A DNA stretch of 64,000 nucleotides from an uncultured Spirochaetales bacterium. GTDB lineage: Bacteria > Spirochaetota > Spirochaetia > Sphaerochaetales > Sphaerochaetaceae. The stretch covers positions 4,514-68,513 of the forward strand of contig CASFZR010000002.1 of NCBI GenBank assembly GCA_949299185.1, in the 5' to 3' direction. The notes under the pieces are model-generated. The model searched no databases. It worked only from the letters and a program-made list of their open reading frames with translations, and had not been told where the DNA came from. Shown here one piece after another: positions 23,435-49,226 of the stretch (positions are counted from its first letter, which is position 1; every line of letters begins with the position of its first letter). Made by a program: the position numbers and the translations under genes.

Positions 23435-24397
23435 ATGACAAAAGACGAACTCTACACCTTCTTCCATGATTCTGGCATCGTTCCAGTAGTGAAGATCGAT
23501 GATGCGGAAAAGGCAGTGCCTCTCGCAAAGGCAATGATCGACGGAGGTATCAACTCAGCCGAGATCACATTCAGGACGGCGGCAGCTGAGGAAGCCATCA
23601 GGAAGGTAACCGCGGCTTATCCGGACATGATCGTCGGAGCCGGAACGGTCATCAACCCGCAGCTCGCGGAGAAGGCCGTGGCAGCCGGTGCTAAGTTCAT
23701 CGTATCCGCAGGCTTCAACAGGGAGACGGTCGAGTGGTGTCTCTCCCATAACATCCCGGTAGTTCCAGGCGTATGCACGCCGTCTGAGATCGAGATGGGT
23801 CTTTCCATGGGCCTTGATGTCCTCAAGTTCTTCCCGGCAGAGGCTTCTGGCGGTGTCGCAATGCTCAAGGACCTCTCTGGTCCGTTCTCTCAGGTAAGGT
23901 TCATGACCACCGGCGGCATCAACCCGAACAACCTCCCCGACTACGCGAAGGCTTCCAACGTCCTCGCCATCGGCGGATCCTGGATGGTGAAGGCCGATCT
24001 CATCGCCAATGAGAACTGGGCTGAGATCACGAGGCTCTGCAAGGAAGCCAATGTGAAGCTCCAGGGTCTTGAGCTTGCCCATGTTGGCATCAACCTCCCG
24101 GATGCGGATGCCGCGGCTGGCGTCGCTGACGAGTTCGCTAAGCTTGGCCTTGAGATCAAGAACGGCAATAGCTCCATCTTCATGAACAAGGAGATCGAGG
24201 TCATGAAGAAGAACTACCTCGGCAAGAACGGCCACCTCGCCTTCAGGTGCTATGATCTTGAGAGAACCGTCTACTTCCTCAAGAACAAGGGATTCACCGT
24301 CAACGAGGAGACCGTCGCATATGATGCGAAGGGCAGGATGAAGGTCTGCTATCTCAACGAGGAGATCGGCGGCTTCGCTATCCATCTCGTAAAGTAA
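23435..24397 (+). CDS. eda: KDPG/KHG aldolase fused to a C-terminal VOC (glyoxalase-like) domain
   Basis: ATG 23435 with RBS AAGGAG. Aldolase motifs GINSAEITFRT, GAGTV and VLKFFPA. About 110 extra C-terminal residues (LELAHVGINLPD...GHLAFRCYDLERTVYFLKNKGF) look VOC-like. Confidence 0.8.
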   Translation: MTKDELYTFFHDSGIVPVVKIDDAEKAVPLAKAMIDGGINSAEITFRTAAAEEAIRKVTAAYPDMIVGAGTVINPQLAEKAVAAGAKFIVSAGFNRETVEWCLSHNIPVVPGVCTPSEIEMGLSMGLDVLKFFPAEASGGVAMLKDLSGPFSQVRFMTTGGINPNNLPDYAKASNVLAIGGSWMVKADLIANENWAEITRLCKEANVKLQGLELAHVGINLPDADAAAGVADEFAKLGLEIKNGNSSIFMNKEIEVMKKNYLGKNGHLAFRCYDLERTVYFLKNKGFTVNEETVAYDAKGRMKVCYLNEEIGGFAIHLVK

Positions 24398-24420
24398 GCA
24401 TCACAGGCTTGCATAAGAAA

Positions 24421-24450
24421 AGGCTCTGCTTCGCGGCAGGGCCTTTCCTT
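24421..24450 (+). terminator. Intrinsic terminator after eda
   Basis: AGGCTCTGC / TTCGCG / GCAGGGCCT (9-bp stem with one G-U pair) followed by TTTCCTT. Confidence 0.6.
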
Positions 24451-24564
24451 ACACGAATTGCCCATTGCCTGATTAGATTGATGTATTTACTAATCAAAGG
24501 ATAATGACTGAGCAAAATCAATTGGCTCTATCATATCGACCTGTTAAGATATTCATCACAGGTA

Positions 24565-26028
24565 ATGATAATGCAGAACAATAATGACTACGATCTCATC
24601 AAGGTTATTTGTGCGCTTCCTCATGAAACAAGCTGGGTCGAACTCAAAAAGGATAACTATAAGCCAGATATGATCGGCGAGGATATCAGCGCTCTAGCAA
24701 ATAGTGCGGTAATCGCAGATCGCTCCTGCAGTTACATGATATGGGGCATCGATGATATAACACATGAAGTCATCGGTACAAATGATGATCTGCAGACTAT
24801 CAAGATAGGTAACGAAGAGCTAGAAAACTGGCTCCGGCATCAATTATCATCAAATGCTGACTTCTCAGTTCGAATGACAGATTTTGAAGGCAAGAATGTC
24901 CTCATCATCGAAATATGCAAACCTTTAGGACTGCCGGTTACATTTAAGAAAGAAGAATACATCCGAGTGGGTAGCTATACAAAGAAATTAAGAGATCTTC
25001 CAACGCTTAAAGCCCAGCTTTGGGATAAATTACGTAATACGAACTTTGAGATGCAGTATGCAAGGCAGAATCTAACCCTTACTGAAGCTTTTGGCCTTAT
25101 AGACTACTCCGTATACTTCAATCTAAGGAAGCTTACAATTCCATCTGATAATGAGGGCATTGCTCATTTCCTACTCGAAGAAGGAATCCTTGCCATTCAG
25201 GATAATGGAAAATATGCGATTACTAACTTAGGGGGGATTACATTAGCTAGGCAACTATCATCATTTCCTCGACTTGAGAGGAAAGCCCTACGACTAGTCC
25301 AATATGAAAATCAAAACAGGATGACCATGCTCAAGGAAATCGTTATCGAAAAAGGGTATGCCGTCTGTATGGAAGAAGCATTAACCTACATTTACGCAAT
25401 GACCCCGACAAAAGAAGAAATCAAAGGGCCGTATCGTGAAACCAAGTTTGCTTATCCTCCAACAGCCGTAAGGGAAGCTTTAGCAAACGCTCTTATCCAC
25501 CAAGATTTTACAATCACAGGAGCAGGACCAACTGTTGAAATCTTCAACACCAGGATTGAGATTACAAATCCCGGGGCACCATTAATTGATATATTACGCC
25601 TCATAGATAATCCTCCAAAATCAAGGAATGAAAAATTATCAACATTGATGAGACGTCTAAGTCTTTGTGAAGAACTAGGATCTGGCTGGGATAAGATAAT
25701 AATAACAACAGAAGCGATGCAGCTTCCTGCTCCCAAGATGATTCCCTACGAGACAAACACAAAAGTCATACTGTATTCAACGATCCCATTCAACATGATT
25801 CCGAAGGAAGAGAAGATCTGGGCAACATTCATGCATGCTTGCATAATGCATATCCAAGGAAATGCCATGACAAACAAGTCATTACGTGATAGATTTGGGC
25901 TCGCAAATACTGCTTCCGCCAGTATTTCAAGGCTTATAAAAGAAACTCTTAGAAAAGAACTGATCAAGCCTTTTGATGAATCGGTATCCTCAAATAGAAT
26001 GATGAAGTACATTCCATTCTATGCCTGA
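24565..26028 (+). CDS. AlbA_2 (Schlafen-like) + HATPase_c_4 + C-terminal wHTH protein (putative DNA-binding/ATP-binding regulator)
   Basis: 487 aa. N-terminus HETSWVELKKD resembles the AlbA_2 E..lEfK motif. AVREALANALIHQDF resembles HATPase_c_4. The C-terminal basic helical region is wHTH-like. Confidence 0.7.
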   Translation: MIMQNNNDYDLIKVICALPHETSWVELKKDNYKPDMIGEDISALANSAVIADRSCSYMIWGIDDITHEVIGTNDDLQTIKIGNEELENWLRHQLSSNADFSVRMTDFEGKNVLIIEICKPLGLPVTFKKEEYIRVGSYTKKLRDLPTLKAQLWDKLRNTNFEMQYARQNLTLTEAFGLIDYSVYFNLRKLTIPSDNEGIAHFLLEEGILAIQDNGKYAITNLGGITLARQLSSFPRLERKALRLVQYENQNRMTMLKEIVIEKGYAVCMEEALTYIYAMTPTKEEIKGPYRETKFAYPPTAVREALANALIHQDFTITGAGPTVEIFNTRIEITNPGAPLIDILRLIDNPPKSRNEKLSTLMRRLSLCEELGSGWDKIIITTEAMQLPAPKMIPYETNTKVILYSTIPFNMIPKEEKIWATFMHACIMHIQGNAMTNKSLRDRFGLANTASASISRLIKETLRKELIKPFDESVSSNRMMKYIPFYA

Positions 26029-26030
26029 GC

Positions 26031-26244
26031 CATTTGCTGGATATTTGCTATAGAGGCATTGAATGGTCGCGAAATCGCGAAAATCACGCTTGAAACAGGG
26101 GGTTGAATCCAGATGTACCCCTCATCTTTATTTGCTGGGTATTTGCTACTGAGGCATTGAATGATCGCGAAATCGCGAAAATCGCGCTTGAAACAGGGGT
26201 TGAATCCAGATGTACTCCTCATCTTTATTTGCTGGGTATTTGCT
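26031..26244. repeat. 97-98-bp tandem direct repeat, 2.2 copies
   Basis: Copies start at 26031, 26129 and 26226 (the third is partial). Copies 1 and 2 differ at only a handful of positions. Each copy has nested ATTTGCT x2 and TCGCGAAA x2-3 sub-repeats. The array starts 3 nt after the stop of the upstream gene. Confidence 0.9.
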
Positions 26245-26431
26245 AGCTGACAAAAGCTTATGCTACGAAAGCATCTTTTTAAGCTCTGAAATGAAGATGT
26301 TGCCTATTTTACATAACAGATTCTATTTGCTTGTTATTTGCTATTGCGTTGTGAAAACGATCGAACTAGATAATAAAATGATTCTCGGAGTATTTTCGAT
26401 TTTAGATCTCCTCATGTGTTAGTATAAGGCT

Positions 26432-27676
26432 ATGTTATCATCATTACGTCCAACCGTAGGCAACTCTAAAAAGCTGATATCCATAATTATCCTACTGATA
26501 TTACTTTACCTATGTATAGTTCTTACTATGGAGTCAAAGATCCTTTCATCCTTATCTACTGCCCGTGACATCAGGATACTCTCAATATTGACGATGGTCG
26601 TATCTGCCGCATGGCTCAGGAAAAGCAATGGATATATCGAGGGGATACTGGCCGTAGCCGGCATAATGATCATCACGCTGGTCTATTCCCTATGCTATGA
26701 GGAATCCGAAGGCATAGCCAAGGCCCTCACCTTCCTCTTCTGCCTATCGATAACCCTTAACGTATCGTGGATGCTGGCCGTCTTCTTCATACCGCTATGC
26801 ATCATCATCCAGCGCTATATGTTCTGGTTCTTCTTCCACTCTATGCCCTCGACAGGGATAACGCCCTTCCCGGATAGCAGCGAGAGCCTCCTGCTGTTCA
26901 TCCTCCTGATGCTGATAGGAATCACGTTCAACAGGCTGTACGAGGAAGCGATGATGCAGCAGGAGCTGATCGAACTGCACGGCAACACGATAAAGAAGCT
27001 GACAGCATCCAACCTGAGCTTCCTTAAGTACGCCAGCAAGATAAAGCACAAGACGCTGTCGGCGGAAAGAGCCAGGGTCACAAGGGAGCTTCATGATGTG
27101 AACGGAGGGCCGCTGATCAACATCATAGCGATGTGCGATGCCGTCCAGAGGCGTCCGCCGGAATCACAGGAGGAGCAGCTTGAGCTCTATGGGTGGATAA
27201 GGGACCAGGCATCGAAATGCCTAAGAGAGACGAGGAGCGTGCTTTACCAGCTCAGGGATCTCAATAGCTACAGGTATAGTGAGATAGACTCCCTGAAGAC
27301 CCTCATCGATACGTTCTCGCAGGCAACGGGAATCGAGATAGCATGCAACTGGGGGAACCTTGCGCGCATAAGGCTGAACGACATAAACGAATCAATATAT
27401 AAGATAATACAGGAATCCCTCATAAACTCATTCAAGCATGGTAAGGCGAGCAAGATAGAGATATCATTCTGGGCGATGGATGGTATGCTGAATATCACGA
27501 TACAGGATAACGGAAGGGGGGCACCGATGAACTATTCGAAGGGAATCGGTCAGACAGGGATGGCTGACCGGATAGCAAGGCTGAACGGAAGGATAGAATT
27601 CATATCATCACCTCTGGGATACATGACCATCGTCAATATCCCGCTAACGAAGGTTTCATTAGATGAGAAAGCTTAA
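26432..27676 (+). CDS. Membrane sensor histidine kinase, HisKA_3 (NarX/LiaS/DesK-type)
   Basis: 414 aa. About 5-6 N-terminal TM segments, H-box RVTRELHDVNGGPL, and a C-terminal HATPase (QDNGRG...GIGQTGMADR). Confidence 0.8.
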   Translation: MLSSLRPTVGNSKKLISIIILLILLYLCIVLTMESKILSSLSTARDIRILSILTMVVSAAWLRKSNGYIEGILAVAGIMIITLVYSLCYEESEGIAKALTFLFCLSITLNVSWMLAVFFIPLCIIIQRYMFWFFFHSMPSTGITPFPDSSESLLLFILLMLIGITFNRLYEEAMMQQELIELHGNTIKKLTASNLSFLKYASKIKHKTLSAERARVTRELHDVNGGPLINIIAMCDAVQRRPPESQEEQLELYGWIRDQASKCLRETRSVLYQLRDLNSYRYSEIDSLKTLIDTFSQATGIEIACNWGNLARIRLNDINESIYKIIQESLINSFKHGKASKIEISFWAMDGMLNITIQDNGRGAPMNYSKGIGQTGMADRIARLNGRIEFISSPLGYMTIVNIPLTKVSLDEKA

Positions 27677-28322
27677 CCTGCTGATCGTTGATGATCAAAA
27701 CCTGTTCGCCAAGAGCCTGAAGATCGTATTCGATGCCTATCCTGATGACTTCGAATCGATAATAGTCGCGGAGAATGGATACAAGGCCATCGATATCCTC
27801 AAGGAAGCCTCCGTGGATGTGGTCCTCATGGACGTCTGGATGCCAGAGATCGACGGCATCAAGGCCGTTTCAATGATAAGGGACTTCAACAAGACCACGA
27901 AGATCATAATGCTCTCCACGTACGGATACGATAAATACGTAAGATCAGCCCTTAAGACAGGCGCTGATGCATACCTGCTGAAGGATATATCACCTGACGA
28001 GCTGATATCATCGATAAAGAGGGTCTTCAAAGGACAGAAGATCATCTCAAGGGAGATCCTTGAGCATCAAGAAGGGAATCCCGATACGAAGAACCAGAAG
28101 CTCGATTATCCAAAGGCCCTAGACACCCTTGTCCAAAGGGAGAAGGAGATACTCGCACTGATAGGAAAGGGATACAGCAATGAGGAGATCGCTGATAAGT
28201 TATGTCTTTCCGAGCATACCGTCAGAAACTACGTAAGCTCCATAAACAGCAAGCTTGAGACAAGAAACAGATTCGAGGCCATGCGGCTGGCCATCGAATA
28301 CAACATCGGATCATTGCTCTGA
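27663..28322 (+). CDS. Response regulator, NarL/LuxR family
   Basis: 219 aa. REC domain (LLIVDDQ...VVLMDVWMPEIDG) plus a LuxR HTH (REKEILALIGKGYSNEEIADKLCLSEHTVRNYVSSI). 14-nt overlap with the kinase gene. Confidence 0.9.
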   Translation: MRKLNLLIVDDQNLFAKSLKIVFDAYPDDFESIIVAENGYKAIDILKEASVDVVLMDVWMPEIDGIKAVSMIRDFNKTTKIIMLSTYGYDKYVRSALKTGADAYLLKDISPDELISSIKRVFKGQKIISREILEHQEGNPDTKNQKLDYPKALDTLVQREKEILALIGKGYSNEEIADKLCLSEHTVRNYVSSINSKLETRNRFEAMRLAIEYNIGSLL

Positions 28323-28375
28323 AAGGAGCCGGCTCCTCCCTACGGAACACCGGCCCCACAGAAAAAGGAGCTAGA

Positions 28376-30718
28376 TCAATACACGGCCGCCACGGTCAGT
28401 ATCCTGTATGGGGCAATCTCCATCTCAAGGCTCTCATCCTTGCAGAGGAGATCTCCCCTATTGCCGTAGATATCAGACATGCGATACTCCCTGACCCCAG
28501 GCATCCGCAAGGAGAAGCGGCCCTTGGTTCCGGCCGTCTCATACAGCCTTATGGAAACGGTATCCGGAGCAACTGCCTCGACAGAGGAGACCACGACGCC
28601 GCTTCCCTTGATGATCATGCGGCTATCGACATCACCGCCGCAGCCTTCCTGTATAGAGACGCCATGGTTCACCATCTCCGCCAGCTCTGGGATCGATGCA
28701 TCGTACCAGGGGCCGGTGAAAGGAAGGATCGTCAAAGCTGTCTCCACGATTCCATGCTGGGAAGAACTTTCATCAGGATACATACCCGCATACTCCGTAT
28801 AAGGAGCCCGAACGATGGTCATATAAAGGGAACGAGGCCTGGATTCGATCCCGCAGTTTCCCGTATTGACCAGGGCAATGCCGCAATCATCGGAATCCAC
28901 GACTGAATACCTGAGGACAGGCCACTCGCCCTTTGCCGTTCCTCTCTCACGATAATACTGGCGCCTCGTGGTACCGAACGGAATCTCATTCAGCATGGAT
29001 GTGAACTCATAAGGCGTCGTGACCTTAACCCTCATCCTCGCCATCTCATATTCCCAGGGAACTGCGATCGATACCGAGACATACGGGGAGTCCTGATAAA
29101 GTCGGAGACTCATGGACCACGGCTGTCTGGAAGCCTTAAACCCTAACGCATCCTCTGGGAATTCTCCGGATATCCTCAGCTCCTGATAAACCGGAGTCCT
29201 GACCGATGACACGGTCATAGAAGATACGATCCAGTCGACCTCAGAACCAGCAGGCTCCTCTATCTGGAAATTCCCCACATCCTTCTGCATCACGAGTGAT
29301 ATGCCATAGCATCGGCCACCGGCGGCTATCGAGCAGGTCTTCCTCTCCGTATCCGCAGACACGGAGACGATGCCATTATCTATCCAATAGCGATCATCCT
29401 CCTCAAAGCATCCTGCCCCATGCTCACCGACAACGCACCTGATATCTGAGATGGAATAAGGAGGAAGCGCCTCTGCGATCTCCACCGAATCACCATACTG
29501 TACGAAGGGAACCTCCCTTCCGTTGCAAAGGACCTTCGAGATCGGGAATCCGACATCAAGCTGCATCGGGATACGCCAGCTACCGCAGTTTCCGGCAAAG
29601 ACAGAATAACGGCCAGGCTCCGGCTGAGGGCCTTGGAATAGCGCCTTCTCATACGAGTCAATCCTTGCGATCAATGAATTCACCCTTCTGATCGCATCCT
29701 GGAAGACATCATCCTGGAATGAGCCGGTTATGAGATCATGCGCCTGAAGATATCCCATGTCCCAATCGAATGTCTCCAGAAGATCGGCATCATGGGCCTT
29801 CCTGAAGAATAGCGCTACCATGGTATGCAGCTGCTGAAGCCGGCTCTCGCACTCACGATACCTCTTCCTCAGCGCGATGCGGTTCGAGAAGGTACCGGTA
29901 AACTCAGGATTCAGATCGGCATCCAGCATCGGCCATTTCCCAGAGAGGGAAAGGACGGTGTCGCAGATCGAATCAGGGGTGGCATACTCCCAAGTCCTCC
30001 TCGTTCCCGGCGCCTTACGAAGCGTCAAGGACCTGGGGGAAGGAAGCACCTCATTCTCCGTATAAGGCATGAAGAGGCGCAGGGGAAGCTCGGCCGCCCC
30101 GCAATCAGCCTCATTGAACAGCTGATCGTATTCCTTCCATCTTGATACATGCCTGAAGGAGAGCCCGTCATCCAGCACCGCAGGAGCATAGACATCGCGG
30201 CCTATCACTGGGATGACGGTGCCATCCTTTCCCTTCGCCTGAAGCATCGTGAACGGGACATTCCCGCCAAGCCTGTTCGCGAAGACATACCTATATCCGA
30301 ACTGCGCTGCCAGCTGCGGGAACTGCGCGTTCATTCCGAAGGTATCGATCAGCCAGCCGACTGTAGCCTTCTTCCCCAGCCTTCCAAGGAACCACCTCTG
30401 CCCTGCCTGTATATTCCTGACAAGGCTCTCCCCTGAGACGGTATTCGTCTCTGACGTGGATACCATGCCTCCGACGATAGACAACCTGCCGTTATCGACG
30501 AAAGGCCGCAGCCTGTCGATCAGATCAGGCCTCCTCTCATCCAGCATGCGCAGCAGATAAGCCTGCTCAAGCACATACGTGAAATCATCATGATGCTCCA
30601 GGATATCGAGAAGCCTGACGATGACGTCCTCATAGAGTTCACTCATCTCCTCAACATCCTTCTTCCACGCTATATCCACATGGGTAACGCCGATTATCCC
30701 ATTGATCTGCTTCTTCAT
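28376..30718 (-). CDS. GH38-family alpha-mannosidase-like glycoside hydrolase, cytoplasmic
   Basis: Start trimmed to MKKQING (ATG 30718, RBS AAGGAGG). GH38 N-terminal pattern THVDIAW...VGGMVSTSETNTVSGESLVRN...GWLIDTFG. No signal peptide. Confidence 0.7.
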   Translation of the reverse strand: MKKQINGIIGVTHVDIAWKKDVEEMSELYEDVIVRLLDILEHHDDFTYVLEQAYLLRMLDERRPDLIDRLRPFVDNGRLSIVGGMVSTSETNTVSGESLVRNIQAGQRWFLGRLGKKATVGWLIDTFGMNAQFPQLAAQFGYRYVFANRLGGNVPFTMLQAKGKDGTVIPVIGRDVYAPAVLDDGLSFRHVSRWKEYDQLFNEADCGAAELPLRLFMPYTENEVLPSPRSLTLRKAPGTRRTWEYATPDSICDTVLSLSGKWPMLDADLNPEFTGTFSNRIALRKRYRECESRLQQLHTMVALFFRKAHDADLLETFDWDMGYLQAHDLITGSFQDDVFQDAIRRVNSLIARIDSYEKALFQGPQPEPGRYSVFAGNCGSWRIPMQLDVGFPISKVLCNGREVPFVQYGDSVEIAEALPPYSISDIRCVVGEHGAGCFEEDDRYWIDNGIVSVSADTERKTCSIAAGGRCYGISLVMQKDVGNFQIEEPAGSEVDWIVSSMTVSSVRTPVYQELRISGEFPEDALGFKASRQPWSMSLRLYQDSPYVSVSIAVPWEYEMARMRVKVTTPYEFTSMLNEIPFGTTRRQYYRERGTAKGEWPVLRYSVVDSDDCGIALVNTGNCGIESRPRSLYMTIVRAPYTEYAGMYPDESSSQHGIVETALTILPFTGPWYDASIPELAEMVNHGVSIQEGCGGDVDSRMIIKGSGVVVSSVEAVAPDTVSIRLYETAGTKGRFSLRMPGVREYRMSDIYGNRGDLLCKDESLEMEIAPYRILTVAAVY

Positions 30719-44249: not shown

Positions 44250-44337
44250 GGAGAGATGTCCGAGTGGTTTAAGGTAGCTGCCTTGAAAGCAGCCGTGGCG
44301 CAAGTCACCGGGGGTTCGAATCCCTCTCTCTCCGCCA
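44250..44337 (+). tRNA. tRNA-Ser (anticodon UGA), CCA encoded
   Basis: Hand-folded. Acceptor GGAGAGA/TCTCTCC, anticodon stem GCTGC/GCAGC with loop CTTGAAA, long variable arm, T-loop GGTTCGAATCC. Confidence 0.9.
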
Positions 44338-44346
44338 TATTAGATT

Positions 44347-44436
44347 GGAGAGGTGCGAGAGAGGCCGAATCGGGCTCCCTGCTAAGGAGTTGACCTGGCA
44401 AACCCGGGTCCGGGGGTTCGAATCCCCCCCTCTCCG
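44347..44436 (+). tRNA. tRNA-Ser (anticodon GCU)
   Basis: Acceptor GGAGAGG/CCTCTCC, anticodon loop CTGCTAA, long variable arm, T-loop GGTTCGAATCC. Confidence 0.9.
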
Positions 44437-44441
44437 ATGAT

Positions 44442-44515
44442 GAGACCATAGCTCAGCTGGATAGAGCATCAGTTTGCGGAACTGAGGGTCGGAGGTTCGA
44501 ATCCTCTTGGTCTCG
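44442..44515 (+). tRNA. tRNA-Arg (anticodon GCG)
   Basis: Acceptor GAGACCA/TGGTCTC, D-arm GCTCAGCTGGATAGAGC, anticodon stem TCAGT/ACTGA with loop TTGCGGA, T-arm GGAGGTTCGAATCCTCT. Confidence 0.85.
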
Positions 44516-44523
44516 TACGCTTT

Positions 44524-44611
44524 GGAGAGATGTCCGAGTGGTCGAAGGAGCCGGACTCGAAATCCGGTGTAGTGCTCTGCATTACCGAGGGTTCGAATCC
44601 CTCTCTCTCCG
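44524..44611 (+). tRNA. tRNA-Ser (anticodon CGA)
   Basis: Acceptor GGAGAGA/TCTCTCC, anticodon stem CCGGA/TCCGG with loop CTCGAAA, long variable arm. Confidence 0.9.
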
Positions 44612-44622
44612 AATGACGCCCT

Positions 44623-44708
44623 GGAGAGGTGTCCGAGTGGTCGAAGGTGCACGATTGGAAGTCGTGTATGGTCAAAAGCCATCGGGGGTTCGAATCCCCC
44701 CCTCTCCG
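44623..44708 (+). tRNA. tRNA-Ser (anticodon GGA)
   Basis: Acceptor GGAGAGG/CCTCTCC, anticodon stem CACGA/TCGTG with loop TTGGAAG, long variable arm. Confidence 0.9.
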
Positions 44709-44712
44709 TATT

Positions 44713-44812
44713 CAGCAGCAGATCCCCGGCAATGAGCGCCGCCCAACCCCGTCAGGACAGGAATGTAGCAGCGGTAAGCGGTAAGCCATGTGACCGGGAC
44801 CATTTGCTGCTG
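44713..44812 (+). ncRNA. ffs: Signal recognition particle RNA, small (4.5S) type
   Basis: 100-nt rod. CAGCAGCA (44713-44720) pairs with TGCTGCTG (44805-44812), and CCCGG pairs with CCGGG. The apical GTCAGGACA-GGAA-TGTAGCAGC matches the conserved domain IV pattern (E. coli GUCAGGUCC-GGAA-GGAAGCAGC). Followed by TTTTCATTTT. Position upstream of dnaX-ybaB-recR as in Bacillus. Confidence 0.8.
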
Positions 44813-44859
44813 TTTTCATTTTACGATTCCAAGGCAAGTACATTCCTTAAAGATAGAAG

Positions 44860-44888
44860 TTGACAGAAAGGCCGTGAGACATTATCGT
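44860..44888 (+). promoter_or_regulatory. Sigma70-like promoter of the XRE/ImmA-Fic cassette
   Basis: TTGACA (44860-44865), 17-nt spacer, TATCGT (44883-44888). Confidence 0.5.
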
Positions 44889-44917
44889 GATGTTCGATTT
44901 AAGAACATCTGATGTTG
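44889..44917 (+). promoter_or_regulatory. Candidate operator: GATGTTC-N7-GAACATC inverted repeat plus a third half-site GATGTTG
   Basis: Perfect 7-bp inverted repeat at 44889-44895 / 44903-44909, abutting the -10 box. Third half-site at 44911-44917. About 20 nt upstream of the XRE start. Confidence 0.5.
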
Positions 44918-44938
44918 ACTTTCTAATAAGGAGGAGCC

Positions 44939-45265
44939 ATGGATACGCATGATCGCCTTAGATTAGCACGGCAAAGACTATCACTTACCCAGGACTATGT
45001 GGCCTCCCTCCTGAATCTTCCAAGAACCGCCGTGGTCCAGATAGAAAGCGGAAAGAGAAAGCTGGCAAGTTCTGAGCTTGAGTCCTTATGCAGGATATAT
45101 GGCATATCAGCTGACTATGCATTAGGAATATCTCCTGATTCAGAAAGAACAAAGATGTATGCAAGAAGCATAGAGGCATTACCCGAAGAGGATCAGATGG
45201 AGATCATGAACCTGATTGAGTTCAAGAAGAAGCTTGCAAGGAAAAGAGAGGCGGCTAGGACGTGA
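44939..45265 (+). CDS. XRE-family HTH transcriptional regulator
   Basis: 108 aa. RLRLARQRLSLTQDYVASLLNLPRTAVVQIESGKRKL is an HTH_3 pattern. RBS AAGGAGGAG. GTGA overlap with the next ORF. Confidence 0.9.
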   Translation: MDTHDRLRLARQRLSLTQDYVASLLNLPRTAVVQIESGKRKLASSELESLCRIYGISADYALGISPDSERTKMYARSIEALPEEDQMEIMNLIEFKKKLARKREAART

Positions 45266-46203
45266 TCCTCGATAAATCATATCTTGCACTACATACAGGC
45301 TCAGCGGAAGAGCTTGCAGATGCTTTCTCTGCCATGGTATTCAAAGGAAAAGAACGCTCTTTCCCAATCAATCCATTTGATGCCCTTACCTTACTTGATA
45401 TTCCCTTCGTGTTTGCCAAGTTGCGGAAATTAGAAGGATTGCTGATTGCTGATAAGGATGATTCCCTTCCAGCTATGATAGCTATAAATTCCAAAAGGCC
45501 CATACAGAGACAGCGATATACTTGTGCCCATGAAATCTGCCACTTCATAAAGGATGTCGGATCATATGATCCATATTCCTGCACGGCAGGGTCCAAGATA
45601 TATGTTGAAAGATTCGCAGAGAATTTCGCTGCCGCTTTCCTGATGCCACGGGATGAGATAATAAGACAGGCAAGAATATACGAGCAGAAGCTTTATCCTG
45701 ACGATATATTACGCATTGCAGAATACTTCGGAACGAGCTATCAAGCCTGCCGTATAAGAATCAGGCAATGCATCCCCAAGAAGCTTCGCGATGATTATGT
45801 ATATGATTCATACAAACCTGCAATAAGGAGGGAGGAATTAGGCTTCAATGACACGTCATTATATACGATGACGCTTGATTCATGGACCCTCGCGTGGCCT
45901 GAAACGGCTGAAACACACGCAGCCTATGTGTTCAAGAATAATTACATCTATAACGATGCCAGGATGGAAGGCATAGACATAGATGAAGAAGAAGTCGCGA
46001 CAATCGTTACGGATCTACGATTAAAAGCACAAGAAAGCATATATTGTGACGGGAATCATGCAGCTTTATCGGAAATAGCCGGACATTCCCTGCTTTACGA
46101 CTATATATTCAAGATATGCCATCAACCAAGCATAGATATCTATGCATTACTTGATTTGAATCGAATCCTGTTCTCTTGCGTTCCCTTCCCAGAATATGGA
46201 TGA
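45262..46203 (+). CDS. ImmA/IrrE (M78, COG2856) zinc metallopeptidase domain fused to the N-terminal half of a Fic domain; ends at an in-frame TGA
   Basis: 313 aa. RYTCAHEICHF (HExxH at 45529-45543) and ERFAENFAAAFLMP are M78 motifs. The C-terminal part NDARMEGIDIDEEEV...LLDLNRILF is the Fic N-terminal helices, including an inhibitory-helix-like xxxxEG motif. Confidence 0.8.
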   Translation: MILDKSYLALHTGSAEELADAFSAMVFKGKERSFPINPFDALTLLDIPFVFAKLRKLEGLLIADKDDSLPAMIAINSKRPIQRQRYTCAHEICHFIKDVGSYDPYSCTAGSKIYVERFAENFAAAFLMPRDEIIRQARIYEQKLYPDDILRIAEYFGTSYQACRIRIRQCIPKKLRDDYVYDSYKPAIRREELGFNDTSLYTMTLDSWTLAWPETAETHAAYVFKNNYIYNDARMEGIDIDEEEVATIVTDLRLKAQESIYCDGNHAALSEIAGHSLLYDYIFKICHQPSIDIYALLDLNRILFSCVPFPEYG

Positions 46204-46266
46204 AGGACAAGGATACAGAACACGGCTGTCATCGGAGCTAAATTCGAAACAGTAGACTACCAAGAC

Positions 46267-46608
46267 GTGATGAGATCGCTTATTACCCTCAATGAGGTTA
46301 TTGGACACCTAGAGAAAAATCATGATTCCATGCCTAAATCAGAAATAGTCAGGGCTATAGCCGACATCCATCATAAGCTGACAGTCATCCATCCATTCCC
46401 TGATGGAAACGGCAGGACAATCAGGGCTTTTACGAATCTACTATTCCTTCGTTATGGAATCCCTCCTATTTACATAAGGACAGAAACAAAGAAAGAATAC
46501 ATCAACGCATTAAGCAAGGCAGATACAGGCACTGGAATAGATAGCCTATACTCATTGATGCTTCAGCTTATCTTCAAGAGCCATGCCGAATTCATGAGCA
46601 TCCAATGA
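46267..46608 (+). CDS. Fic-domain catalytic core fragment, in frame with the upstream ORF (possible pseudogene fragment or separately translated product)
   Basis: Canonical Fic motif HPFPDGNGRTIR at 46390-46425. Same reading frame as 45262..46203, with no stop other than the TGA at 46201-46203. The codons between (RTRIQNTAVIGAKFETVDYQDV) read like the Fic flap region. Confidence 0.75.
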   Translation: MMRSLITLNEVIGHLEKNHDSMPKSEIVRAIADIHHKLTVIHPFPDGNGRTIRAFTNLLFLRYGIPPIYIRTETKKEYINALSKADTGTGIDSLYSLMLQLIFKSHAEFMSIQ

Positions 46609-46667
46609 TCTTCACGGCGGTGTCAAAGGCTCCCCTTTCCATGCTATACTCCCTTAGTGGAGCAAAG

Positions 46668-48383
46668 ATGACAGAAGGCAGAAGCACATACGAGGTCACG
46701 GCAACTAGGAAGAGGCCCCAGGATTTCGATTTCCTGGTTGGTCAGGATTTCGTGGTCTCTACCCTGGAGAATGCCATAAGCGAGAACAGGATCGCCCATG
46801 CGTATCTGTTCTCAGGTCCGCGAGGCGTCGGCAAGACAAGCTCGGCGCGCCTTCTGGCAAAGGCCCTCAACTGCCAGCGCGGCATGAGCGCCCATCCCTG
46901 TGGAGTCTGTGACTCCTGCGTGGAGATCGCAAAGGGCAAGTCCGTTGATGTGATCGAGATCGATGGCGCCTCCAACACCAGCGTCAATGACATAAGGAAC
47001 ATCAAGGAAGAGATCATGTTCCCGCCTCAGTCATCGAGGTACAAGATCTACATCATCGATGAGGTACACATGCTCTCCACCTCGGCCTTCAATGCGCTTC
47101 TGAAGACGATAGAGGAACCACCGGAGTATATCATCTTCATCTTCGCGACGACTGAGCTGCAGAAGGTTCCCGCAACCATCCGCTCGCGCTGCCAGCAGTT
47201 CCGCTTCTCCCTTATAAGCGAGGAGCTGATAATGAAGTGCCTCAGAAGCGCTGCCGAAGACATCCACATGGAAGCGGATGAGGACGCGCTATTCTGGATC
47301 GCCAAGGAAGCGACGGGCTCGATGAGGGACGCATATACCCTCTTCGATCAGGTAGCCTCATTCTCCGGAGACCATATTACGCTGGACAAGATAAGGCAGA
47401 AGCTATCCATAGCCGGCTTCTCCGCGATAGCCTCGATCGTCGCCAAGACGCTCTCCGGAGAGACTGGCAAGGCCCTTGAGGAGATCGGAGGGCTATTCGA
47501 GGATGGGATTTCCCCTGAGCAGATCGTCAAGGATAGCGCGGAGTTCTTCAGGACCCTTCTCCTGTATAAGGAGGGAATCAGGCGCACGGACGTGCTTGGC
47601 TCCGCCATCAAGGATATCCCGGAGGATATCGTGAACGCCCTGACCAGAGAGCAGCTGGAAGCGGCCCTAAAGTCATTCCTGACGCTTTACAGGGAGCTAA
47701 GGTATTCTCTCTCTCCCCGCTTTGAGATAGAGCTTCTATACTCACGCCTCTCATCACTTCCGCTGCTTGCGACACCCGATGTGCTGATGAAGAAGCTCGA
47801 GGACCTGAAGAACGGGGTCGCGGAAGGCAGCGTGGTGATAAGCCATAAGGCAAAGGCGGCTCCTGTGCAGATACAGGCGGCACGGACGGAGGCAACCGCG
47901 CCTCCACAGCCCGCTTACGAGGCAGAGCCAGCCGAAGAAGAGGAAGAAGCCTCGGAGGAGGAAGAGGAGCCGGGGCAACGAGGGCCTCTTTCCCTTGATG
48001 ATATCCCCGCGATAGCAGAATCGCTCCTGAAGATGGGAAAGAGGGCCGAATCAAGATACGTCTCGGATATAGAGGCAATAGAGGAGAATGATGACGGAAC
48101 CTTCTCCTTGCTGCTATCAAAGCCCCTCGCGTTCAACAGCCTGAAGAACGCGGAGAAGGATCTGCAGAAGGCCATCGCCTCGGCAACGGGGGAAGGCTAC
48201 ATGATAAGACTCCGCCTCAAGGAACAGAGGGACCATGCCGACGAGGGCTTCTCGCCGGAGATGAGGAAGCTCAAGGCCTTCTTCGGAGGCCAGCTGGTAC
48301 GCAAGGACGGAGCCGTGACGGAGGAAGACAGGGAAGATGAATATATCACCTTTAGAAATGATGAAGAGGATCAGTTCTCTTGA
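46668..48383 (+). CDS. dnaX: DNA polymerase III subunit gamma/tau
   Basis: Start trimmed to MTEGRSTYEV (ATG 46668, RBS GGAG). GPRGVGKTSSARLLAKALNC, zinc module CGVCDSC, IIDEVHMLS. Acidic low-complexity C-terminal region. Confidence 0.95.
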   Translation: MTEGRSTYEVTATRKRPQDFDFLVGQDFVVSTLENAISENRIAHAYLFSGPRGVGKTSSARLLAKALNCQRGMSAHPCGVCDSCVEIAKGKSVDVIEIDGASNTSVNDIRNIKEEIMFPPQSSRYKIYIIDEVHMLSTSAFNALLKTIEEPPEYIIFIFATTELQKVPATIRSRCQQFRFSLISEELIMKCLRSAAEDIHMEADEDALFWIAKEATGSMRDAYTLFDQVASFSGDHITLDKIRQKLSIAGFSAIASIVAKTLSGETGKALEEIGGLFEDGISPEQIVKDSAEFFRTLLLYKEGIRRTDVLGSAIKDIPEDIVNALTREQLEAALKSFLTLYRELRYSLSPRFEIELLYSRLSSLPLLATPDVLMKKLEDLKNGVAEGSVVISHKAKAAPVQIQAARTEATAPPQPAYEAEPAEEEEEASEEEEEPGQRGPLSLDDIPAIAESLLKMGKRAESRYVSDIEAIEENDDGTFSLLLSKPLAFNSLKNAEKDLQKAIASATGEGYMIRLRLKEQRDHADEGFSPEMRKLKAFFGGQLVRKDGAVTEEDREDEYITFRNDEEDQFS

Positions 48384-48639
48384 GAAGAACATGGGGTCTA
48401 TCTCCAAGTATGCGGAAGGGCTCCTTGTAACAGGCGAGTCCGGTGCCGGCATGGTTAAGGCGTCCGTCAATGCCGATGGCATGATAAAGGAGCTTGAGAT
48501 ATCTGACGAAGCATATGCGCTCGGGGATAAGAACGCGCTCTCGGTACTCATCATCAGCGCGATCAACAACGCTCAGGAGAAGAAGAAGGCCGAACTTCAG
48601 AGCCTAGTCGTGAAGACGCTGCAGGATGGTGCGAATTGA
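48337..48639 (+). CDS. ybaB: YbaB/EbfC nucleoid-associated protein
   Basis: 100 aa. LLVTGESGAGMVKASVNADGMIKELEISDEA is typical of the family. Overlaps the dnaX 3' end; the exact start is uncertain (48337, 48358 or 48361). Confidence 0.85.
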   Translation: MNISPLEMMKRISSLEKNMGSISKYAEGLLVTGESGAGMVKASVNADGMIKELEISDEAYALGDKNALSVLIISAINNAQEKKKAELQSLVVKTLQDGAN

Positions 48640-49226
48640 GCGCCATCGAGGAGCTTATCAGGCTCATCAAGCACCTTCCGGGCATGGGCGAGAAATCGGC
48701 GACCAGGCTTGCCTACCACCTGATCCGCAGCGATGAAGGCTATAACAAGGCGCTCGGCGGCGCGATAGCCTCCATCAAGGAGAAGATACACCCCTGCCCC
48801 ATCTGCGGCTGCTATACCGAGGATGATATCTGCCAGTACTGCGCGGACGGCCAGAGGGACAAGACCCTCCTCTGCATCGTGGAGGAGCCGCAGGATGTGC
48901 TGTCGATAGCCTCATCCGGCGCCTACAACGGGTTATTCCATGTCCTCGGTGGCGCGATAAGCCCTCTTGATGGCGTCGGGCCGGACGCTCTCTCCTTCCC
49001 CAGCCTGATGAAGCGTATCGAAGAGGGGACGTTCAGGGAGCTGATAATAGCGACCAATCCGACCGAGGAGGGCGACACGACGGCCCTTTATATCAGGCAT
49101 CTCCTCCGGGATCGTGAGGATATCACGCTGACACGCCTTGCCTCAGGTCTGCCTATAGGTGGAGATCTGGGCTATGCCGATAAGCTCACGCTAGCCCGCT
49201 CTCTCAGAGGCCGGGTCAGACTCTGA
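48636..49226 (+). CDS. recR: Recombination protein RecR
   Basis: 196 aa. HhH LPGMGEKSATRLAYHL, zinc finger CPICGCYTEDDICQYC, Toprim LCIVEEPQDV. Confidence 0.95.
   Translation: MSAIEELIRLIKHLPGMGEKSATRLAYHLIRSDEGYNKALGGAIASIKEKIHPCPICGCYTEDDICQYCADGQRDKTLLCIVEEPQDVLSIASSGAYNGLFHVLGGAISPLDGVGPDALSFPSLMKRIEEGTFRELIIATNPTEEGDTTALYIRHLLRDREDITLTRLASGLPIGGDLGYADKLTLARSLRGRVRL

Follow-up and report, generated by a model that had tools for sequence, protein, structure and literature searches.

The 64,000-nucleotide stretch analysed here (the window) comes from contig CASFZR010000002.1 of an uncultured Spirochaetales bacterium (GCA_949299185.1) and carries, between the small signal recognition particle (SRP) RNA gene ffs and the dnaX-ybaB-recR genes, a two-gene cassette (44939-46608) that starts right after the SRP RNA. 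The first gene encodes an XRE-family repressor and the second joins an M78 peptidase to a Fic domain (Table 1). The original prediction, made from the letters of the window, had described a 108-amino-acid XRE helix-turn-helix (HTH) gene coupled by a GTGA overlap to an M78–Fic open reading frame (ORF), and both genes were recovered as described, the GTG start of the fusion gene at 45262 overlapping the TGA stop of the repressor gene. The repressor consists of an N-terminal HTH and a C-terminal helix with an invariant D-x-x-E-I-x-x-L-x-x-F-K, and it matched the PADLOC capH model (8.9e-11, positions 7-100 of 103).

With its one internal stop read through, the 448-codon fusion product was matched in Pfam by both Peptidase_M78 (PF06114; residues 69-167 at 6e-15 and 55.6 bits, cut-off 22) and Fic (PF02661; residues 295-394 at 2.2e-10 and 41.6 bits, cut-off 24), so that the two domains do lie in one frame. 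The 313-amino-acid piece before the stop matched M78 alone, and the 113-amino-acid piece downstream of it the Fic core alone; the Fic domain as a whole occupies residues 220-448. The fusion was modelled by AlphaFold2 with a mean predicted local distance difference test score of 90.3 and a predicted template modelling score of 0.90, and when this model was searched with Foldseek, one half was covered by matches to Fic proteins and the second half by matches to CapP or IrrE. In the PDB, no entry covering both halves was found by profile search or Foldseek, no PADLOC-DB v2 model spans them, and no description of an M78–Fic fusion was found in the literature searched; this agrees with the original statement that no characterised example of the fusion is known.

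An alignment of 97 homologues shows no change at the peptidase residues H90, E91, H94 and E116, the counterparts of active-site residues in CapP and IrrE; the HEICH motif corresponds to HELGH of Thauera CapP and to HEISH of IrrE. The Fic residues H377, G382, N383, G384, R385 and R388 are invariant in the same alignment and form a canonical HxFx(D/E)GNGRxxR motif. Because both catalytic residue sets are invariant, both predicted activities are under selection across the fusion family. Besides Cys107, which is considered below, C93 (inside HE[IL]CH, as numbered in the intact allele P0001) and Cys163 in the helical linker are also invariant; these two residues might form a second metal site or sense redox state.

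Table 1. Positions of the cassette, its predicted functional sites and its flanking genes in the window.
Feature	Position	Strand	Basis
tRNA cluster, five genes (Ser-TGA, Ser-GCT, Arg-GCG, Ser-CGA, Ser-GGA)	44250-44709	+	ARAGORN, Rfam tRNA matches
Small bacterial SRP RNA (ffs), left host flank	44716-44812	+	Rfam RF00169, 62.8 bits, E 2.7e-12, full model 1-97
Candidate sigma-70-type promoter TTGACA-17 nt-TATCGT	44860-44888	+	10/12 consensus match; suggestive only
Candidate operator: perfect 7-bp inverted repeat GATGTTC-N7-GAACATC (44889-44909) plus third half-site TGATGTT	44889-44916	+	Repeat search
XRE-family repressor gene, 108 amino acids	44939-45265	+	Pfam HTH_3 8.3e-10
M78 peptidase–Fic fusion gene, 448 codons, pseudogene here	45262-46608	+	Single frame, one internal stop
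HEICH zinc-peptidase motif (H90, E91, H94)	45529-45543	+	Invariant in 97 homologues
Cys107, candidate cysteine switch capping zinc in the resting state	45580-45582	+	Invariant in 97 homologues; alignment with CapP
E116, predicted third zinc ligand	45607-45609	+	Invariant in 97 homologues
Glu236 in YNDARMEG, candidate inhibitory glutamate of class II Fic	45967-45969	+	Invariant; profile alignment with FICD
In-frame TGA, codon 314 (ancestral GGA, Gly)	46201-46203	+	Comparison with public contigs
Fic catalytic motif HPFPDGNGRTIR (H377-R388)	46390-46425	+	Sequence; 3' of the premature stop in this window
dnaX, right host flank	46668-48383	+	ORF list; Pfam families in L001
ybaB	48337-48639	+	ORF list; Pfam YbaB_DNA_bd on orthologue
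recR	48636-49226	+	ORF list; Pfam RecR_HhH, Toprim, RecR_C on orthologue

The fusion gene in the window is a pseudogene: its effector is dead and the full fusion protein cannot be made, as the TGA at codon 314 removes the flap and the catalytic loop. Base 46201 is T in the window and G in each of the 15 other public contigs that span it, namely L001, from another 'uncultured Spirochaetaceae' metagenome-assembled genome (GCA_944389145.1), and 14 further contigs (L009-L026). The ancestral codon was GGA, which encodes a glycine (Gly314) that is invariant in the 97 homologues, and the change is a GGA to TGA nonsense mutation. An intact 448-amino-acid allele, P0001, differs from the read-through product at only two residues and has Gly at the position of the TGA. 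The original prediction had suggested repairing the stop from TGA to TGG, which would restore the wrong residue. The truncated 313-amino-acid product recurs in two further assemblies, Logan ERR10610541 and ENA ERZ16268201, which may draw on shared reads; their agreement makes a sequencing or assembly artefact unlikely.

TGA is read as glycine in genetic code 25, and the stop sits exactly at a Gly codon position. One explanation that would leave the gene intact in this organism is that TGA is recoded, as Gly, as selenocysteine or through programmed read-through. We regard this as hardly credible, and rejected it, because more long ORFs of the window end in TGA (28 of 46) than in any other stop, because the XRE gene and the fusion gene itself end in it too, and because the 15 other contigs have GGA at the site (14 of these contigs belong to the same population). 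Long ORFs across the window also read normally under table 11, and within this population frameshifts, a further nonsense codon and a deletion of 960 bp occur in the fusion gene.

The population referred to here is the set of contigs with an identical YbaB or XRE protein, which were taken as one population. Besides the TGA of the window, at least four other independent lesions were found in its fusion genes: single bases deleted at 45894 (L010/L019) and, within a run of A, at 46315 (L018), an AAG to TAG nonsense mutation at 46516 (L022) and a 960-bp deletion of 45256-46215 (L008, L011 and L014). There are thus at least five lesions in the population, which also contains seven intact fusion-gene haplotypes. 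The XRE gene is complete in all of these variants except the 960-bp deletion allele, where the last three codons only are altered. Repeated breakage of the predicted toxin gene with the repressor kept fits a dispensable or costly effector.

The 960-bp deletion joins the 3' end of the XRE gene to the C-terminal part of Fic, and the ORF of 112-137 amino acids that is called 'Fic' in these contigs contains the catalytic motif and neither the candidate inhibitory helix nor the flap. We considered whether this short XRE plus Fic form might be a separate hotspot cassette, and rejected this as it is an internal deletion with 1-nt microhomology at its junction. The deletion haplotype also differs in the ribosome-binding region of the XRE gene (44925-44927). 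L017 has ten substitutions within 140 bp (window 45891-46029) and is near-identical in the rest of the cassette; this clustering suggests that the patch was brought in by recombination with a diverged allele, and an allele of 86% identity (P0002) is known. L020 follows the cassette as far as 46332, where unrelated genes (a 155-amino-acid ORF and a HAD hydrolase) take the place of the Fic core and dnaX, and its junction is either a rearrangement or an assembly chimera.

The segment between the SRP RNA and dnaX (44813-46667) has 43.0% GC against 54.4% in the rest of the window, as low as only 13 of 622 same-size sliding windows, a count that includes the overlapping windows on the cassette itself. 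GC at third codon positions is 0.43-0.47 in the cassette and 0.71-0.75 in dnaX and recR, so the impression that the segment is richer in AT than its flanks was correct. A second low-GC island (0.42-0.49 against about 0.55) lies at 24001-28400 of the window and encodes a 487-amino-acid Schlafen/AlbA_2 plus HATPase_c_4 protein (24565-26028), followed by a HisKA_3 histidine kinase and a LuxR-type response regulator.

The window and L001 are 88% identical over 12 kb. Across 44912-46663, however, they differ at only four positions in 1752 bp (99.8% identity); identity falls to about 90% from 46664 on, the leader (44836-44911) has seven differences, and the SRP RNA is the same in both except for one base just upstream. 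A near-identical cassette amid flanks of about 88% identity argues for a recent transfer of the coding part of the cassette between the two lineages, with homologous recombination in the conserved flanks as the presumed route. Two species with DnaX proteins 75-76% identical to that of the window have unrelated genes 5' of dnaX and no SRP RNA within 6 kb; absence of the cassette upstream of dnaX in genus-level relatives and its foreign composition both agree with what had been predicted for an inserted element. In the distant relative L003 (DnaX 45% identical) a large SRP RNA lies 33 nt upstream of dnaX, an arrangement that agrees with an ancestral ffs-dnaX adjacency.

An empty ffs/dnaX site was not found: the scan of genome contigs for DnaX returned relatives with other upstream genes or the distant L003, nothing close was present among the metagenome matches listed, and exact look-ups of YbaB and XRE returned cassette-bearing contigs only. 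The position exactly between SRP RNA and dnaX is as originally stated, while the insertion boundaries rest on composition, the identity profile and the one distant ffs-dnaX relative. That every contig of this species reaching the site carries the cassette or a remnant of it would also be expected if the cassette were ancestral here and vertically inherited, its low GC reflecting gene-specific constraints. We consider this very improbable, given the third-position GC of 0.43-0.47 beside flanks of 0.71-0.75, the 99.8% identity of the cassette between lineages whose flanks are about 88% identical, the unrelated genes upstream of dnaX in the two species with 75-76% identical DnaX, and the occurrence of the same gene pair in unrelated phyla, prophages and one plasmid record. 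As judged from these comparisons, the segment appears to be a horizontally acquired, self-contained two-gene module.

The fusion is not a one-off product of insertion; it belongs to a conserved two-gene family with hundreds of members that carry only generic database names ('ImmA/IrrE family metallo-endopeptidase' or 'Fic family protein'). A word-indexed search with the read-through product gave 640 matches; among the best 120 of these, nearly all are 447-466 amino acids long and all 120 carry both Pfam domains. Exhaustive profile scoring of 1.84 billion representatives gave about 40 full-length clusters at 50% identity, plus fragments. The family ranges over Clostridia, Bacilli and Spirochaetes, prophages included, and the organisms named for its members include Spirochaetales, Sphaerochaetaceae, Ruminococcus, Clostridiales and Proteiniclasticum. 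In GenBank phage genomes no full-length fusion was found, only stand-alone Fic or M78 homologues.

A cognate XRE gene (103-129 amino acids) lies immediately 5' of the fusion gene, usually overlapping it, in nine of the nine other contexts examined. The XRE proteins of eight loci are 36-58% identical and F95-K96 is invariant among them, and the partner in Bacillus pumilus matched the XRE of the window with an hhalign probability of 96%. The genes downstream of the pair are wholly different among the loci (dnaX-ybaB-recR here). The pair was found in a prophage between minor capsid and scaffold genes (L027), in the chromosome of Proteiniclasticum sp. QWL-01 (L028), in housekeeping neighbourhoods (L031 and L113), beside genes for a DUF4417 and a Schlafen/AlbA_2 protein (L114), beside serine recombinases on IMG/VR contigs (L035 and L038), and in a circular 40.5-kb plasmid record of B. 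pumilus with phage genes, where it lies between a lysis cassette and an integrase and a separate ImmA/ImmR pair is present by that integrase. Prophage, serine recombinases and plasmid record mark the pair as accessory or mobile; otherwise it stands alone among housekeeping genes. The AlbA_2 plus HATPase_c_4 domain set of the 24565-26028 protein in the window recurs near the pair in L114. In L031 an extra XRE-like HTH frame (LKGMTQLELSLCSGISQDMISSVESGRRNP, positions 120-350) lies upstream of the pair, and three independent contigs all end about 400 bp upstream of it.

The peptidase half is closest to CapP, which together with the repressor CapH forms a regulator pair of CBASS (anti-phage signalling system based on cyclic oligonucleotides) and further operons for defence (Lau et al., 2022, 10.1101/2022.04.27.489752; Calloji et al., 2026, 10.64898/2026.05.16.725639). 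Fusion residues 28-170 matched the PADLOC capP model at 8.2e-21, over model positions 15-153 of 242 only, and a profile of the N-terminal half matched Thauera CapP (7t5t) in the PDB at 1.6e-9. Cys107 aligns with the cysteine in '..SFQC..' of this protein, which is C113 when counted from H96, the published cysteine-switch residue. R83 is the equivalent of CapP R90, an arginine that contacts single-stranded DNA (ssDNA), and is invariant in the 97 homologues. As in CapH/CapP, a repressor of about 100 amino acids with a C-terminal oligomerization helix adjoins an M78 peptidase, HExxH and its Glu ligand, the switch cysteine and the R90-equivalent arginine are kept, and part of the CapP central helical domain can be aligned. 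In contrast to CapH/CapP, the repressor gene comes first and the genes overlap, the C-terminal GAF domain of CapP is replaced by Fic, and there is no adjacent multi-gene defence operon (CBASS, DISARM [defence island system associated with restriction-modification] and others), the sole effector being fused to the peptidase.

The Fic half resembles class II Fic proteins. In the PDB the fusion profile matched human FICD at 6.6e-20, and Clostridioides difficile Fic was also matched; Glu236 aligns with the inhibitory glutamate of 'TVAIEG' in human FICD. Class II Fic proteins (FICD/HYPE, C. difficile Fic and SoFic) and Fic/Doc toxins share with the fusion the Fic fold and the HPFxDGNGRxxR motif, and an N-terminal helix with Glu-Gly in the fusion is a candidate counterpart of their inhibitory helix. 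They differ in their surroundings, as the fusion is without TPR, winged HTH or any other known Fic accessory domain and has an N-terminal M78 peptidase instead. Among defence models the Fic half matched PADLOC PDC-S04 (2.8e-18) and, partially (66-258 of 361), SoFic (1.2e-11), which is a validated abortive-infection defence protein (PMC12249575). The NCBIfam models for SoFic, NmFic, VbhT and Doc all scored far below their cut-offs (20.5 bits against 550 for SoFic NF046030).

Other known modules share part of this organization. ImmR/ImmA of ICEBs1 and of phi105-type phages and DdrO/IrrE of Deinococcus share PF06114 and the logic of a protease that cuts an XRE protein, but they control a mobile-element life cycle or a DNA-repair regulon and have no fused effector. 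RosmerTA (RmrT/RmrA) and the Xre-COG2856-toxin sets likewise combine M78/ImmA, an XRE HTH and a toxin in a small mobile module (PMC2701414, PMC10440598). In Rosmer and most COG2856 systems, however, one protein carries both HTH and peptidase and a separate gene encodes the toxin, whereas here the toxin-like domain is fused and the HTH separate; their partner toxins are PIN, RelE or diverse RmrT proteins and not Fic, and the PADLOC RmrA models gave weak, domain-wise matches to both of our proteins (2e-9 or weaker). The 'mobile mystery protein A/B' pair also has an XRE-type gene followed by a Fic gene in a small cassette on mobile DNA, but that family lacks a peptidase domain, and TIGR02613 (mobile mystery protein B) matched in the core motif region only (2.4e-8, 34.1 bits where the cut-off is 124.4). 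Components and logic alike are known; the arrangement of a separate XRE protein with a cysteine-switch M78 peptidase and Fic in place of GAF differs from all of the systems compared.

We propose that intact copies encode a signal-gated toxin switch, in which an XRE-repressed, CapP-type peptidase is fused to a class II Fic AMP-transferase, and on balance we think this the probable reading. The XRE dimer would repress the cassette promoter through a palindromic operator so that only a trace of the peptidase-Fic protein is made, and the inhibitory glutamate within the Fic domain would restrain it further. The cysteine switch would open on a stress signal, for which DNA damage or intermediates of phage replication, ssDNA for instance, are the likeliest candidates, and the peptidase would then cut XRE in its conserved C-terminal helix; the candidate site F95-K96 resembles the F82-R83 site of CapH. 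Repression would then collapse, the fusion protein would accumulate, and Fic would AMPylate an essential target, leading to growth arrest or an aborted infection. Every functional step here is inferred, by analogy with CapH/CapP (10.1101/2022.04.27.489752, 10.64898/2026.05.16.725639), ImmR/ImmA and DdrO/IrrE. The signal-gated toxin put forward in the original prediction gains support from the CapP alignment (switch cysteine and ssDNA-contacting arginine) and the FICD alignment (inhibitory glutamate); its toxicity, gating and anti-phage function are predicted properties.

The main rival to this proposal is that XRE is a direct antitoxin. The locus would then be a tripartite or type II toxin–antitoxin (TA) addiction module, in which XRE binds across M78–Fic to neutralize Fic and also represses, the peptidase merely degrades XRE, and the function is selfish stabilization of the DNA that carries the module and not phage sensing. 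Three-component Xre-COG2856-toxin sets and Xre-Fic/Doc pairs are established comparative-genomic classes (PMC2701414), and in Rosmer-like TA systems many toxins are partnered by antitoxins with an ImmA domain (PMC10440598). In a CapP–CapH model, moreover, the HTH of CapH docks on the very domain that is replaced by Fic here, the two genes are tightly overlapped at most loci examined, and a broken toxin with its XRE kept in the population is typical of TA-locus decay. We nevertheless consider an addiction module rather unlikely, as the conserved cysteine switch and ssDNA-contacting arginine point to a gated and not a constitutive protease, and as Fic has its own candidate intramolecular inhibitory glutamate and does not obviously need an antitoxin.

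Several points weigh against the signal-gated switch. With protease and effector in one polypeptide, basal expression already delivers Fic, a property that fits the direct-antitoxin model at least as well. The ssDNA groove of CapP is partly built by GAF (W196, Y264 and W280), a half that is missing in the fusion, and the activating signal may therefore differ from that of CapP. The inhibitory motif is DARMEG (consensus DSRxEG), which, when compared with (S/T)xxxE(G/N), has an invariant glutamate (Glu236) and a following glycine that is conserved in the sequences inspected, but its first position is Asp and not Ser/Thr. The original prediction gave the segment its own promoter and operator. Candidate sites are indeed present, the palindrome lying directly after the -10 element of the candidate promoter, and they would fit an autoregulated XRE operon; they are, however, suggestive only and not statistically distinguishable from chance, since promoter-like matches in the region are no commoner than in shuffles and a comparable inverted repeat occurs in 9% of shuffles of the 126-bp leader. 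Homologous loci have some palindrome at the operator position each time, the sequences being unrelated, which is neutral for the operator call. As the repeated loss shows, this host can do without the module, which may also be costly to it. For the fusion family as a whole, toxicity, XRE cleavage and phage defence are likewise inferred.

Another possibility is that Fic is not a toxin at all but acts in the place of GAF as a nucleotide-binding sensor, or as a reversible AMPylase/deAMPylase, that controls the peptidase. The pair would then be a stress-responsive transcriptional switch that could drive dnaX-ybaB-recR by read-through. Fic does sit where CapP has its ligand-binding GAF domain, and the inhibitory glutamate of FICD-type enzymes supports deAMPylation, according to a preprint on SoFic and EF-Tu (10.64898/2026.07.09.737422). 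The terminator scan gave no terminator-like site between the cassette and dnaX, which is on the same strand, so transcription of the cassette may read into dnaX-ybaB-recR. We think this quite improbable, because the downstream genes differ completely among loci and leave no conserved regulated cargo besides the pair itself, the complete catalytic motif is invariant, and repeated inactivation of the fusion gene with XRE kept is more easily explained by a harmful effector.

The flanks of the cassette have features of their own. Directly 5' of the SRP RNA, the tRNA cluster is tightly packed, with four different tRNA-Ser genes and tRNA-Arg mid-cluster, and several public contigs end in or close to it. 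On the other side, the N-terminus of DnaX (MTEGRSTYEV, starting at 46668 behind GGAG) resembles the MAEGMSTYEV of relatives, and public gene calls place the dnaX start at an ATG that overlaps the Fic stop (ATGA, 46605), giving proteins of 589-592 amino acids. The acidic low-complexity part of DnaX (EEEEEASEEEEE, window 47800-48000) is where the window and L001 diverge most, with 68-78% identity and indels against about 88% overall.

The locus in the window is a decaying, mutationally inactivated member of an uncharacterized variant of known regulator-toxin modules. For annotation, this means that the M78–Fic gene should be treated as a pseudogene in this genome and that gene callers extend dnaX upstream over the cassette. 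For population genetics, a near-identical cassette across diverged lineages, together with many independent knock-outs, is a compact example of the gain and decay of a costly accessory gene. We put forward tentatively, and at less than even confidence, that XRE plus M78–Fic is a compact anti-phage or abortive-infection system, in which a CapP-type cysteine-switch peptidase, as the sensor of infection or DNA damage, has been covalently joined to its own Fic AMPylase, cutting of XRE derepresses and releases the toxin, and the module, carried by prophages and through recombination between gut Clostridia, Bacilli and Spirochaetes, is costly enough that it is lost time and again. The concept of such a sensor-effector would not greatly surprise a specialist, and the family, with two genes in about 1.7 kb, is small, experimentally tractable and a good candidate for experiments. 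If the proposal is true, this would be the first CapP/ImmA-type sensor protease physically fused to its effector; it would mean that, by way of the repressor-protease switch, a single protein can serve as sensor and effector, beyond transcriptional regulation only, and the known defence or toxin modules would gain a Fic AMPylase that is controlled in a new way.

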